DNA of 64,000 nucleotides from Candidatus Gastranaerophilales bacterium (GCA_944325165.1 CALUZF010000001.1:1166-65165), one strand, 5' to 3'. Positions 15,001 to 33,000 are shown, counted from the first letter of the stretch. Numbers are program-made.

Positions 15001-18000
15001 TAACTCAGTATTTTGCCGGATTTTACACACTGGCAAAAGCTTATTATAAAAAATATGGCGAAGATATAAAAATCTATAATATGCGATATGAAAAAACAAA
15101 TAAATCGTTATATATAGAAAATTATGTTACCGTTTCCGAACTTATTAAGCTTAATTTATCCAACAATGAAATTTCAGAACTATTTAGAAAAAAAACAAAT
15201 CAAATAGCGCAAAAACAGCGAAAGTTTTAAGACTTTTTAAACCAATTATATATACCCAAAGAATTAGAAATTAAATAGAGTGATATTACAACTAGCATTG
15301 GGATTGTTTCTAAATTTGCAGATTCTCCATTGACTATTGGCAACAACCAAATTAACAGCATAAAAACGTTGCATATTAAAAAAAGTATAAACATTGCTGG
15401 ATTTTTATTTAGCATAAGCCAATGTGCTAAGATATTAAGCGAAACTGAAATTGTAGCAATAATCAAGTTAGGCGTTTCTAAATATTTTAATAAAAAATAA
15501 AATCCAACACCTAGAATTAAACAAATTAATATTGAAACACACCAAACCTTTAAACTCATTTTTTTTCTTCTAACTTGGAGCTCGTTTTTATCTGATTCTT
15601 TATTCCACAATACATAAGTTGCAATTAATATTGGCAAAACAATAACACTTGTTAAAATTAACTCACCCCAATTTTTATAAAGCGCAGACTGAATAATGTA
15701 TAAAATTGACTGAATTATTCCTAGCACTATTGCAAATTTAAATCTTTTTGCCAATAAAGCAACATAAAGGGTTGCTGTTATACTAAAGCAAATAGTTAAA
15801 GCGGAACTTTTAGCAAGTATGGATAATACAATTATAGCAACCATTCCTAAACTTATATATGTTATTTCAAACCAATTAAATTTGCTTAAAAAAATATTAA
15901 ATTTTTCTTTAAACATTTCTTTTCCCTTTTTTTCTATAAACTACAAAACATATTGTAACATTTATTTTCTTTTTATTAAAATAAAACATTTATATTTTTC
16001 CAAATCATAACTTTATTTATTCGCTTCACTTATTGACAAATTTAATGTACTTTAATATAATATAAAACATTAGGATAGGAGAAAAGATGAATATAGCTAA
16101 GTACAAAAAAATTAAAGAATTTAAATCTATTTTAAAAGCTAATAATCTAAAAGTAAAAAATGGTTTGTTAAAATATCAACCTACATTTACTGTTTCAAAA
16201 AAGCAAATTGTTGTTACTCTTTCAATTTTATCTATTTTAACAACAAATTTGGTTACAGCATATTTAAATAACCAAAATCCTCCTGTTAATAACAATTTTA
16301 GTCCGGATCGTGTTATTGAAGACAATAACAATAATGATATAAATTTTGATGACAGTGGTCAAATAATAGTGAATCCGATATCTCCAAATGAAATGGAAAC
16401 AATTGTAAATAAATTTAATTCTGAGCTTTTAGTAGATATTAAAAACAGAGTTTCTGAGCCTATTACAAAAATAGATGAAATTCTTTCGATATATCAACTA
16501 CCTTACAATTCGTTTGAAGGAGATAATGAATTTGATAAATATCAATTATCAATAATTTTTACGGCCAATAATAAAAATTATTGTATTAACTATTTAACTG
16601 GGCAACAATTTAAATATGATGAGGTTAACAAAAAAGATATGTTGTTAAATTTTGTTAATTTTTTATCTAATTCATCTCTAGATTTATGCTCTTCTATGGG
16701 AGAAATAGAAAAACAAATTTTAGATTTACTTGGGGACGATTATTTATTTGTATCGCCTAGTTATTATGCATATGGACAATCTGGCGATTTGTATTACTAT
16801 ATTCCTGTTTTCGGTTGTTTAGAGGAAAAACCTTTTGTAAAACTTTTTAGTTGTATGGCAAATTTAATTGATGCATACGACTTAAATCCTTCAACTGTTT
16901 TACTATCTCAGTTAAAAGGGGATAAAGATATTTTCAATATATCAGATGTTAAAAACGAAGAAGATTATTATAATATACTAAATTTATATAGTGAATTCTC
17001 ATTACAATCTTCAAATGCAAAAATTAATAATAATTATACTAATTATGAAAAAAAGGCTATTGATTTAAGCAGAAGTTTTTAAATAAAAAAGGAACATAGT
17101 TCCTTTTTTTATTTATTTTTAGCGTTTTTTCTTCTTAAGAATATCCAAATAATTGCACTTGCCAAAATTATTGATATTAATGCAATGCTAATATATGCCC
17201 CATAGTCTATCCATTCCTCATTATCTGTTGTTATGTAAAATTCTCCTAAATTATTTGAAAGTATAATTAAATCTCCATTTTCATCTTTATAAGAAGATAA
17301 TAAGTCATATTCTCCATTTTCATCTAATGAATAAACATAAATATTGTTTAGATTAAAAATTTCTTTAGGTATTTTAATAGAAATTTTTATAGTGGTATTA
17401 AGATTTACTATCGATTCTTGTTCACAATCTTCAATCCACACATTGTAAGTGAACAATGATTTATGGTTTTTTATTTGGTTTTCTGTTCCCTCAATTGCTG
17501 TAGCTTTTAGTATAAAGCCTTCATTTAAAATTGCCTGATCATTGGCTGTTATTTTAATATTTTCTGCATCTAATTCAACATTTGTTATATTTGCATATAA
17601 ATATTCTGGCAAGATCAAATTATAGTTGTTTGATTTTTCTCCAAAAAGTTGAATATTTGTTAAATAAACTTTTAAATCATTTCCAACGTTTACTGATTCA
17701 AAATAAGCACAATTTTCTCTATCATACAAAAGTATAACATCGTTATCTATAATACCTGTTACATATGGATTTCTTATATAAGCTTTGTTTGTTCCATCAT
17801 AAACCTTATCGTAAACACTTGCAACTAAATATACATCTTTAGGAATTATATTTAAATAGTCTTCTTCTAAAATTATATTGTAATTTGGATTATATAAATT
17901 GCTGATTAGTTTATATTTACCAACATCTTCTCCTTCATCTCGTATAATACTACCGTTAAGTTTATCATTATTTATTAGCTCACCTTTAATAATTTCATAA

Positions 18001-30000: not shown

Positions 30001-33000
30001 CTATTTATAGCATACAACAATAAGCCCGCAATAACTAAAAAACCTAACGTCAAAAAAACAATTTTTTTTATTTTAGAAAAAACACCAACCCCATCTTTAA
30101 TGCGAATGGAGTTTGTCAAAAATTCTAATTTTAATAATGTTAAAAATTGTCTCATTTTTTTCCTTTGTTGTGCTTTTATTTTTTGTCAAACGGTTTTTTC
30201 TTTTTTTGTTTAGCTATTTCCTTTTTATCAAATTTTCTCTTTTTTTTATCTTGCTTTTTGTTATAGCTAATAACTTTTGCCATTTCTTCTTTTGTTAGAT
30301 TTAAAAAGTAATCTTCTAAAGAAACTTTGCTTTCTTTCAAAAACTTTTCAACTTCAATTATTTCCATTAATTGACCATGATTTATTATTGCAACTCTATC
30401 ACATAATTTTTCAACCATATCAATATTATGAGATGAAAAGAAAACCGAATTACCATTTTTCTTGTGTTCTAACATATATGCCCTAATTTCTGCTGTGCTT
30501 TGAGGATCTAACCCCATTAAAGGTTCATCTAAAACCCAAAATTTTGGATTATGAATTAAAGCGGCAATTATGCAAATTTTCTGCTTCATTCCGTGGGAAT
30601 AAGAACGAATCTGTCTATCTATTGCGCTAGACATATTAAATAATTTTGCAAACATTTCTAACCTAGATTTAATTTCTTCTTTTGGAACATTGTAAATGTT
30701 TCCCATATAATTGACGTATTCTTTGCCGGTTAAATTTTCATAAACGGCGTGGTTATCTGGAACGTATCCGATATTTAGTTTTGCTTTTATTGGTTCTTTC
30801 TGAATATCATAACCGCAAACCGATATTTTCCCATCGTCAAATGGGAGAATTCCTGTTAAACATTTTATTGTTGTACTTTTACCTGCTCCGTTTTTTCCCA
30901 AAAAGCCAAAAATTTCACCATCGTTAATGGTGATATTTAAATTTTTAACTGAATAATAATTTGAATTTTTATATCTTTTTGTTAAATTTTTTATTTCTAA
31001 CACAAAAAACCCCTTTTGACAAAAAGATTTTATCATAAAATAATTTGCCAGTCAATATATTATTATTTATATAATATACATAAAATCTAAATATTGCCCT
31101 AATTTCTTTATAATAGTTGAAAAAATTTTGAAAAATTTTTTAACTTTGTTACTATAAACATATGAATATAGAAAATTTTTCAAATAGTTTTATTACTTAT
31201 GAGCCAATAAAAGAGGAACTTTTAAAGGAATGTGATAGAGTTGTTTGCGTTTTAAAATATAACAATAGCTGGGTTTTTTGCAAACACAAATTAAGACAAA
31301 CCTGGGAGATACCGGGAGGACATATAGAGAAAAATGAAAATTGGCTATCTGCATGTAAAAGAGAAATGTTTGAAGAAACAGGAGCTACTAAATTAAATAT
31401 AAAACCCATTTGTATTTATCACATTAATAATTATGGTGTTTTATGTTTTGGCGAAGTTCAAAGATTTGAAGATTTACCAAATTTTGAAATAAAAGAAATA
31501 AGATTTTTTAAAAAAATCCCAAAAAATTTAACATATTCTTGGCATAAAGATTTTTTTTACATTGTAAAAAATTATAAAAAGATTAAATTTTAAATCAATA
31601 AAAAACTCTGCTTTTGCAGAGTTTTTTATAGCTAGCCTATAAGCCGAGTTCTGTATTTGATGGTTATCTATCTAGACAATTTGTTCCCAAATTGTTCAAG
31701 CGGTGTTATTAAGAAACGAGCGAACAACCCTAATGTTTCTTTTAACCTTACTCCGGGTGGGGTTTACATTTGCCACTTTTGTTGCCAATAGTGCGGTGAG
31801 CTCTTACCTCTCCTTTCCATCCTTACCAATTTCTTGGCGGTTTATTTCTGTTGCACTTTCCCTAAAGTCGCCTCCGCCGGCAGTTAACCGGCACCCTGTT
31901 CTATGGAGCTCGGACTTTCCTCATGTTCTTCACTACAAAGACATGCAACCATCTGGCTAACTAAGTTTAGTATATCATTTTTTTTTAATTTTACAAACTT
32001 GCTTGGTTATCTTTTGAATAAATATTATTTGCTAAACTTTTAATTATATTATCTGGCAATGTCTGAACATGAATATGTATTTCTAGTTTTGGCATTAAAT
32101 AACTTAAAAATAACCCATTTTCTTTTTTATGAAATTTAATTTTATCTAAAAACTTTAAATTATCTATCTCTTTTATAATGTCATTTCTTTTAGTGTTTTT
32201 AAAAAGTTTTGGAAATTCACTCCTACAGTTGTTTAATCCGTCAACAAATTTGTTAAATTCAATTTCTTTTTTGCCCGATTTGTTTAAATATTTTAATATA
32301 GGCTCAACCAAATCGCTTGCGTAAAATTCCTTCATATTAACCTCCGCGTTCCATTGTATAATGATTTTTTATTGTTGTCAAGATGTCTTTTTCACTTTTA
32401 TTATTTATCTTTTTGTGATAAGATAAATTCATGCTTATCGATATTCATTCACATATAAATAACGAAGAGTTTTTAGATGATGTTGAAGATGTAATAAAAA
32501 GGGCACAAAATTCTAATGTTAAAAAAATTGTTTGTGTTGGCTGCGATTACAAATCCTCAATTTCGGCAATTAATTTGGCAAACAAATTTAAAAATGTTTA
32601 TGCGGTTGTTGGCTTTCATCCAAACTCAGCATTTGATTATGATAAAAATTCTGAAAAACTAATATTACAAGCAAAAGAAAATAAAAAAATAATAGCAATT
32701 GGAGAAATTGGTTTAGATTATAATAATCTCGAATGGCAAATAGAAAATGCTAAAAAAAATAATCAAAATTTATTAATAACAAAAGAAAATTTTATAGAAA
32801 AACAAAAAGAAGTTTTTTTAAAACAACTAAAATTAGCAAATGAAATTAATCTTCCTGTTGTTATTCACATGAGAGAGGCAACCAATGAAACATTAAAACT
32901 GTTAGAAGAAAACCAAAGTTTATTGTCTTGTGGAGGAATTATACATTGTTTTAATGGCAGTCTTGAAACAGTAAAAAGAATTTTTGATCTTGGTCTTTAT

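Follow-up and report, generated by a model that had tools for sequence, protein, structure and literature searches.

The gene cluster analysed here lies on the minus strand of a 64,000-nucleotide stretch of DNA from a chicken-gut metagenome (GCA_944325165.1, CALUZF010000001.1:1166-65165), which is called the window and whose host is an uncultured Clostridia bacterium. Because a SpoIVA gene is located at 44677-46170 of the window, the host is taken to be a spore-former. The cluster (17109-31036) is composed of four head-to-tail open reading frames (ORFs) encoding an ATP-binding cassette (ABC) ATPase, a permease and two giant proteins, named G1 and G2, with 3806 amino acids (aa) in total (2072 + 1734). 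The ORF coordinates and the intergenic gaps reported in the initial annotation were found again, with 20 nt between ATPase and permease, 0 nt between permease and G1 (the TAA stop codon of the permease gene runs straight into the ATG of G1) and 9 nt between G1 and G2; only the start of the ATPase was corrected. Comparison with related genomes showed that the conserved unit comprises three of these genes, namely those of the ATPase, the permease and the G1 family. The features of this unit are the following:

30176-31036, minus strand: ABC ATPase, DrrA/ABCA-like, 286 aa as listed (Pfam ABC_tran, 4.2e-28)
28542-30155, minus strand: fused permease with 12 transmembrane (TM) helices, 537 aa, modelled as two tandem ABC-2-type six-helix halves (AF2, Foldseek)
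22323-28541, minus strand: giant protein G1, 2072 aa (ORF; Pfam Big_2, 6.7e-63)
28458-28532, minus strand: N-terminal hydrophobic segment of G1, MKKLVMFLMVAIPLFIVLIVNFTVSVVV, residues 4-28 (hydropathy scan)
23343-28418, minus strand: stalk of G1, Ig-like array, residues 42-1733 (Pfam Big_2; self-trained hidden Markov model, HMM)
22326-23336, minus strand: distal tip of G1, residues 1736-2072 (AF2, Foldseek)

The permease was used for a locus scan with one genome per species, which gave 79 loci. All of them come from metagenome-assembled genomes that belong to uncultured Clostridia of the gut, to Christensenellales or to 'Firmicutes' and that were obtained from chickens, rabbits, humans, ruminants and further sources; the neighbouring genes were labelled by ORF calling and phmmer/HMM searches. 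The results showed that the ATPase gene is located directly upstream of the permease gene in all 74 testable loci and that a G1-family gene is located directly downstream in 67 of 73, mostly with gaps of -4 to +20 nt; the adjacency is thus not restricted to this genome, a restriction that the initial annotation had named as grounds for rejecting its reading. Within the close clade (permease score of at least 400 bits, about 42-81% identity), a giant G1 follows the permease in 45/45 testable loci, and in loci with a permease of 30-36% identity the next gene encodes a short G1 of 800-927 aa. Using an HMM of the tip domain, we found a G1-family protein in 21 of the 27 distant loci, sometimes as two or three tandem paralogues. 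One ABC pair is accompanied by one to three tandem G1 paralogues in loci L058, L060, L061, L070, L072 and L075; three tandem short paralogues stand behind a single pair in L075, and one paralogue in L070 reaches the Pfam Beta_helix model at 1.9e-5. The linkage still holds at 27% permease identity (P0103, followed by an 828-aa G1 relative) and is gone at about 22%, where an Rce1-like protein or unrelated genes are found beside the permease. Starting from the short G1, we found that P0118 and P0125 adjoin an ABC pair as well. Since the adjacency is kept across dozens of related genomes, the transporter and G1 probably work together.

Of 57 testable loci, 36 have G2 behind G1; other lineages lack it or carry a different gene in its place. 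The window's clade and L047 have MBG/YDG proteins in the third position, which is occupied by a BspA-type leucine-rich repeat (LRR) giant in L055 and L088, by a Glug protein in L077 and by DapB-like housekeeping genes in L037 and L052. G2 is therefore a clade-specific add-on. The initial annotation had treated the ABC pair and both giants as one unit and the giants as cargo-like proteins; the tight unit was confirmed, but the two giants are not equivalent cargo, because only the G1 family is a conserved partner. As a separate observation in a distant lineage, the short G1 gene of L088 (10249-16433) and L055 (14914-21495) is followed by a 191-aa ORF and then by the BspA-type LRR giant of about 2900 aa.

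Conservation along G1 was analysed in 39 full-length homologues. The best conserved part is residues 1-200, with 52-58% identity versus 20-51% elsewhere (mostly 26-45%), and the tip is among the least conserved regions (26-36%). Alignment of 68 N-termini of the family showed the pattern MKK-h9-(I/V)P, in which M1, K2, K3 and P13 are conserved at >=90% and (I/V)-P occupies positions 12-13. This MKK...IP pattern is retained even between family members that are about 20% identical overall. The hydrophobic segment is predicted to be a Sec-type signal or membrane anchor, and conservation of this kind seems unusual for a plain signal or anchor sequence. As plain signals and anchors are not normally so conserved, the N-terminus of G1 points to a specific intramembrane contact, for which the co-inherited permease would be the obvious candidate.

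The lengths of G1-family proteins are bimodal, with a short class of 800-927 aa (867 +/- 41, n=26) and a giant class of 2047-2216 aa (2081 +/- 30, n=39), and no intermediates were found among L001-L079 and P0152-P0211. The short form aligns to residues 1-200 of the giant (the hydrophobic segment and two Big_2 domains) and to residues ~1550-2010 (the last Big_2 domain and the beta-helix). The length distribution suggests one expansion event, followed by constraint on the length of the stalk. In G1 of the window, the self-trained HMM detected 17 Big_2-like units that recur about every 83 aa, and from the spacing of these units the stalk is estimated to contain about 20 Ig-like domains. An antisense TTG-initiated ORF of 132 aa lies inside the G1 gene (23518-23916, plus strand) and most probably exists by chance, the repeat DNA being AT-rich.

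The tip of G1 was modelled by AF2 as a capping helix, a right-handed parallel beta-helix, a helical insert and, at the C-terminus, a beta region of poor model quality, with a predicted local distance difference test score (pLDDT) of 70 overall and 85-90 in the beta-helix core. Foldseek matched it to adenovirus LH3, the binding region of a serine-rich repeat protein (SRRP) of L. reuteri, GH87, PL6 and K1 lyases, AlgE4 and pectate lyase. No Pfam match of the tip reached the threshold, its profile matched PL6 marginally (E=0.078), and a PDB sequence search with this profile gave only Big_2 matches or nothing. An alignment-seeded search was swamped by Big_2 words and yielded 12 true tip relatives; an exhaustive HMMER search found 60 among 1.84 billion representative proteins. 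The motifs kept in the tip alignment (LYGNG, GCIxRN, NCIFSN and IYNW) are structural beta-helix motifs only, and no invariant acidic or basic catalytic residue was found in it. As only structural motifs and no invariant acidic residue are conserved, the tip looks more like a domain for binding than like a catalytic one.

For the permease, 116 homologues were found, which differ little in length. Its AF2 model (pLDDT 81, predicted TM-score 0.73) contains 12 long TM helices arranged as two sets of one amphipathic interface helix plus six TM helices, with a linker between the halves at about residues 285-301. The Foldseek matches in the PDB were PmtCD, CcmB, NosY, KpsM, Wzm and ABCG5/8, all with type V transmembrane domains (TMDs); the leading matches had a probability of 0.97-1.0 and a TMt of about 0.5-0.59. 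The sole PDB match over the whole permease was the Rv1217c-type structure 8k1p (617 alignment columns, TMq 0.38). The permease thus models as a fused type V (ABC-2) fold of 2x6 TM helices. The two halves align weakly but in register (hhalign E=0.0034), with LLKLEF matching ALFFREF in the interface helix and LKLPVKG matching KIIPVSY, which suggests that the permease arose by an ancient internal duplication. Pfam (even at E<=10) and NCBIfam scans gave no match of the permease, including none to Pfam 12TM_1 (PF09847) or ABC_tran_2 (PF16949), and a PDB sequence search with a profile of 75 permease sequences found no relative. Precomputed PF16949 or PF09847 matches were found mostly for distant permease homologues (20-33% identity) and for a few at 39-54%; since only some, mostly distant, homologues match, the family lies at the fringe of these models. 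Both the permease and the tip domain fall outside the curated families, and neither matches a solved sequence. Classification by HMM, which the initial annotation had proposed, placed the ATPase in ABC_tran and gave no family for the permease. In the literature on PF16949/PF09847 and on ABC systems with Big_2/MBG adhesins, we did not find the cassette described.

The best NCBIfam match of the ATPase is drrA (3.3e-66, 223.6 bits, below the cut-off of 312.45), and the second best is GldA (1e-53, 182.7 bits versus a cut-off of 402.6); RbbA and lantibiotic-protection ATPases (galliderm_ABC) also matched below their cut-offs. The nearest PDB sequences are the nucleotide-binding domains (NBDs) of ABCA1/7/4/3 (about 1e-67), followed by NosF (7e-32), LptB, Rv1218c (4e-31) and TagH. 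Walker A (GKNGAGKS), Walker B with the catalytic Glu (FWVLDE(P)) and the H-loop (SSH) are intact. In the ATPase of the window and those of L001-L079, the signature is YSHGM(K/H)Q in place of LSGGQ, the Gln of the Q-loop is changed to Asp (GYVPD in 73/78), and the LDEP of Walker B is invariant. The ATPase ends in a Lys-rich, strongly basic C-terminal tail, KKQDKKKRKFDKKEIAKQKKKKPFDKK (30176-30320, minus strand); similar tails are present in the close relatives L002, L007, L019 and L038 and absent from L032 and L047.

The second giant protein, G2, comprises the following features:

17109-22313, minus strand: giant protein G2, 1734 aa (ORF)
22218-22313, minus strand: cleavable-type signal peptide, residues 1-32, with the predicted cleavage between ...NQAFA and LIQG (read from the sequence)
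21162-22217, minus strand: N-terminal distal domain, unclassified, residues 33-384 (sub-threshold Flg_new-like matches only)
17616-21161, minus strand: stalk, 11 MBG_2 + 4-5 YDG units, residues 385-1566 (Pfam MBG_2, 1.1e-118; YDG, 3.9e-27; self-trained HMM)
17112-17204, minus strand: C-terminal TM anchor (residues 1704-1726) and basic tail RRKNAKNK (hydropathy, motif scan)

Pfam detected 11 MBG_2 stretches and 4 YDG units in the stalk, and the self-trained HMM detected 11 MBG and 4-5 YDG units. A short C-terminal domain lies between the stalk and the TM segment. The G2 homologues carry matching signal peptides, and their mature N-terminus, (I/V)xG(V/L)SGN(K/R)(F/Y)VLTG, is conserved. A PDB sequence search with G2 found no relative of the N-terminal distal domain, and a metagenome scan with the C-terminal 255 aa found no relatives. 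The related loci, with their 10-kb flanks, cover the first ~1240 aa of G2, and the sole comparison for the C-terminal anchor is the complete MBG protein of L047, which ends in the same way with a TM segment and a basic tail. No LPXTG-like motif was found in G2 by a regular-expression search, although the hydrophobic segment and the basic tail are present; the same search found no C-terminal motif of this kind in G1, only internal look-alikes (IPVTG at residue 200 and others). The architecture described in the initial annotation was therefore recovered for all three proteins: a large polytopic permease (537 aa with 12 TM helices in the AF2 model), a Big_2 array ending in a parallel beta-helix in G1 (Pfam and self-trained HMM for the array, AF2 and Foldseek for the tip), and an array of about 15 units with a signal peptide and a C-terminal TM segment in G2 (11 MBG and 4-5 YDG units), neither giant having a C-terminal LPXTG-like motif.

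We compared the cluster with known systems that resemble it in part. NosDFY (PDB 7o0y, 7znq) likewise consists of an ATPase, a type V ABC-2 permease and an extracytoplasmic right-handed beta-helix protein. NosY was among the best matches of each permease half (probability 0.96-1.0, TM-score about 0.5-0.59), in addition to the NosF match of the ATPase. However, NosY is a homodimer of 6-TM chains, whereas the window permease is one fused 12-TM chain, and NosD sits directly on NosY, whereas the beta-helix of G1 is located at the far end of a stalk of 3 to 20 Ig domains. G1 has no Pfam NosD or Beta_helix match, and no nosZ, nosL or nosR gene lies nearby; membership was rejected on the NosD model, the geometry and the gene context. 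CcmAB(CD) and PmtCD are type V ABC systems that free or extract partners or peptides embedded in the membrane; their targets are the anchored protein CcmE and hydrophobic peptides, not a soluble solute. Foldseek ranked them highest for the permease (6xjh, 7f02, 8ce1), but they have no sequence-level relationship to it, no heme-maturation or phenol-soluble modulin (PSM) genes are present here, and the partner is an Ig/beta-helix protein of 800-2200 aa. The mycobacterial efflux pump Rv1217c-Rv1218c (PDB 8k1m-8k1p) shares the arrangement of one fused permease of about 510-540 aa and a separate ATPase, but it is a drug efflux system to which no surface protein is dedicated, its match has a low TM-score, and the search with the sequence profile found nothing.

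GldAFG combines an ABC-2 transporter with a large accessory protein of the envelope, and its substrate is still unknown. Among the NCBIfam matches of the ATPase, GldA ranks second, but the score of 182.7 bits is far below the cut-off of 402.6, the host belongs to Clostridia and not to Bacteroidota, and no GldF- or GldG-like matches appeared in the Pfam and NCBIfam scans, so membership was rejected. The NCBIfam families TIGR03769-03773, which we take to be anchored-repeat-type ABC transporter systems, were also rejected, because none of the permease, G1 and G2 was assigned to a family in the NCBIfam scan. The type I secretion systems (T1SS) of giant Ig-repeat adhesins (SiiE/SiiCDF, LapA/LapEBC) resemble the cluster in having an ABC transporter gene beside the gene of a giant Ig-repeat surface protein. 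They have a fused TMD-NBD exporter, a membrane-fusion protein, an outer-membrane protein and a C-terminal secretion signal, none of which is found here; membership was rejected because the NBD and the permease are separate, there is no membrane-fusion protein gene, the signals are N-terminal, and no RTX-type Pfam matches were obtained. Fibrillar adhesins are built from a repeated stalk, a distal non-repeat domain and a cell anchor, and about half of the predicted ones have no known anchor (PMC9210967). Both G1 and G2 have this plan in their architecture, with adhesion being predicted, and the beta-solenoid binding region of the L. reuteri SRRP (PDB 5nxk) matches the fold of the G1 tip. Unlike Firmicutes fibrillar adhesins, they have predicted TM anchors (N-terminal in G1, C-terminal in G2) instead of LPXTG/sortase anchoring, the polarity of G1 is reversed with the tip at the C-terminus, and G1 is tied genetically to an ABC transporter. 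The sortase-anchored LPXTG class was rejected, since neither giant has a C-terminal LPXTG-like motif.

From the gene order, the conserved linkage, the folds and the way conservation is distributed along G1, all of which the analysis shows, we tentatively favor the reading that the ABC-2 complex acts on or docks the conserved N-terminal membrane segment of G1, which is a real possibility though by no means assured. The module would contain two ATPase copies, one fused 12-TM permease and one G1-family protein. Both giants would cross the membrane via Sec, and the ABC complex would recognize the N-terminal membrane segment and the membrane-proximal Ig domains of G1, either docking G1 as a stable partner subunit or spending ATP to handle or release its hydrophobic anchor. 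Possible precedents are the type V machines with membrane-embedded or single-pass partners, namely CcmAB-CcmE, NosFY-NosD and PmtCD-PSM peptides. In the window's clade, the number of Ig domains in the G1 stalk would have risen from about 3-4 to about 20, another fibril with MBG/YDG domains and a C-terminal anchor, G2, would have been added, and the operon would build a pair of long adhesin-like surface fibers. On this reading, the transporter and G1 would interact physically, ATP hydrolysis would have a role and the fibers would adhere. A stronger form, which we regard as rather unlikely, is that the ABC pair is a dedicated ATP-driven handler (a docking platform or an anchor 'dislocase') of the G1 membrane segments, mounting or releasing fibers in monoderm Clostridia without sortase signals, which would be a route not recognized before. 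If so, the fixed length of the giants (2081 +/- 30 aa) and the oppositely anchored G2 would amount to a two-fiber surface structure of defined height.

Several observations weigh against an action of the ABC complex on G1. No G1-family gene could be detected behind the permease in six of the 73 testable loci, and in the Pfam-scanned CAG-917-like loci (L063) the permease is followed by patatin and PolA genes. The G1-family gene P0126 has no adjacent ABC pair, so the coupling is not obligatory in cis, and shared membership of an operon can mean co-regulation without contact. The structural matches have weak Foldseek E-values (0.1-3 for the permease, 0.01-0.3 for the tip), and the tip model with its pLDDT of 70 was built on a shallow alignment of 13 sequences. 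Surface-protein genes are dense, with six large ones within the 64-kb window (roughly 40% of it), so third-gene adjacency outside the close clade is given little weight; this density weakens G2 and the other third genes as true partners there.

The linkage could also be coincidental or regulatory, with the ABC pair being an ordinary efflux or resistance pump (e.g., for bile or antimicrobial peptides) that shares an operon with surface genes for gut colonization. The resemblance of the ATPase to drug and lantibiotic-protection ATPases (drrA, galliderm_ABC, Rv1218c), the relatives lacking a G1 neighbor and the abundance of surface-protein genes in these genomes are in line with it, but the near-zero-gap adjacency persists in 67/73 loci while the permease identity drops from 81% to about 30% and the flanks change, and the G1 partner retains a specific N-terminal membrane motif; we consider such a coincidence improbable. 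A coupling through a substrate was weighed as well, in which the molecule exported by the ABC-2 transporter is a lipid, glycolipid, glycan or small hydrophobic peptide (cf. TarGH, Wzm-Wzt, KpsMT, ABCA and PmtCD) that the G1 tip binds or modifies, or by which it is decorated. A type V fold with a DrrA/ABCA-like NBD is typical of lipid, polymer and peptide exporters, and the pectin-lyase-like beta-helix of the tip is common to polysaccharide lyases, epimerases and glycan-binding adhesins; its profile has the marginal PL6 match. However, genes for glycosyltransferases or polymer synthesis are absent from the flanks of the module here and do not occur consistently in related loci, the tip of the giants is about 20 Ig domains away from the membrane, it has no invariant catalytic acidic or basic residues, and the conserved end of G1 is the membrane-proximal one, so that this coupling seems somewhat unlikely.

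The initial annotation had suggested a specialized export, assembly or sensing role for the ABC system. A dedicated secretion, in which the transporter itself moves G1 and/or G2 across the membrane, would agree with the tight operon containing two giant extracytoplasmic proteins without sortase signals. The canonical signal peptide of G2 and the N-terminal hydrophobic signal or anchor of G1, however, lead one to expect Sec; the NBDs are separate and the fold is type V, not the type IV half-transporter of a T1SS; and a membrane-fusion or outer-membrane partner is missing, as are a C-terminal secretion signal and RTX repeats. Because both giants are of the Sec type and the transporter is of type V, direct ABC translocation of 2000-aa chains is unlikely, and we judge a dedicated secretion machine of this kind to be very improbable. 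To our knowledge, no type V exporter translocates a large protein. An assembly role is possible, and a sensing role is conceivable. Little is known of how the cell surface is built in Christensenellales and the gut Clostridia related to them, which are abundant and for the most part have not been cultured; the cassette is a testable candidate for sortase-independent assembly of surface fibers, and it would join the few type V ABC machines, such as NosDFY and CcmAB, that work for a protein and not for a solute. If the linkage is only regulatory, the finding shrinks to the correct annotation of an uncharacterized operon.

Two regulatory signals were predicted at the ends of the cluster:

31027-31055, minus strand: promoter-like TTGACT-17 nt-TG-extended TAAAAT (TGaTAAAAT), 10/12 consensus match with TG (consensus scan; consensus match only)
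17085-17109, no strand assigned: hairpin AAAAAAGGAAC-ata-GTTCCTTTTTT with U/A-tracts on both sides, directly 3' of the G2 stop codon (terminator scan and sequence)

The promoter-like site is located in the gap common to the operon and a divergent NUDIX gene (31162-31593, plus strand), and the hairpin is likely a bidirectional terminator common to G2 and the convergent gene at 16087-17082 (plus strand). A terminator scan found no coding-strand terminator-like hairpins at the gene junctions of the operon. RBS-like (ribosome-binding site) sequences precede the downstream genes, with AAGGA 7 nt ahead of the permease ATG, GGAGG/GAGG ahead of the G1 ATG and GGTG ahead of the G2 ATG. From these sequence features, we infer that the four genes are co-transcribed. 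A search for RNA sequencing runs found none, and the contigs of one run of unspecified type, when aligned to the window, look like DNA fragments of low depth. The listed ATG of the ATPase (31036) falls within the promoter-like TTGACT-17-TGaTAAAAT site. A GTG at 31003 stands behind the RBS AAAGGGG and gives the N-terminus xLEIKNLTKRYKNS, which is common to homologous ATPases, each behind its own RBS. Owing to this RBS and to the agreement with the starts of the homologues, the true start is probably GTG 31003, giving a protein of 275 aa (30176-31003), 33 nt shorter than the listed ORF.

The genes around the operon encode NUDIX, TatD, KsgA, an NMN transporter and unknown proteins; the flanks are housekeeping genes. 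A phage or mobile-element origin of the operon was dropped on account of these flanks and of a base composition like that of the surroundings. Other genes of surface proteins are distributed over the window. A second giant cluster (48973-56813, minus strand) contains a 209-aa ORF (56184-56813), a 0-nt gap, a 1959-aa protein (50304-56183) with GLUG and M26-peptidase-N-like regions and, downstream of it, a 435-aa protein with a GDSL-lipase domain (48973-50280, minus strand). Putative surface proteins are also encoded by a BspA-type LRR_5 gene (810 aa, 7453-9885, plus strand), an unclassified ORF (687 aa, 10199-12262, minus strand) and a gene with a divergent InlB B-repeat (958 aa, 40170-43046, minus strand). 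Beside the last one lies a gene for a TraG/VirD4-type type IV coupling protein (37481-39478, minus strand; T4SS-DNA_transf, 3e-51), which may point to a conjugative element adjoining the gene of the 958-aa protein.

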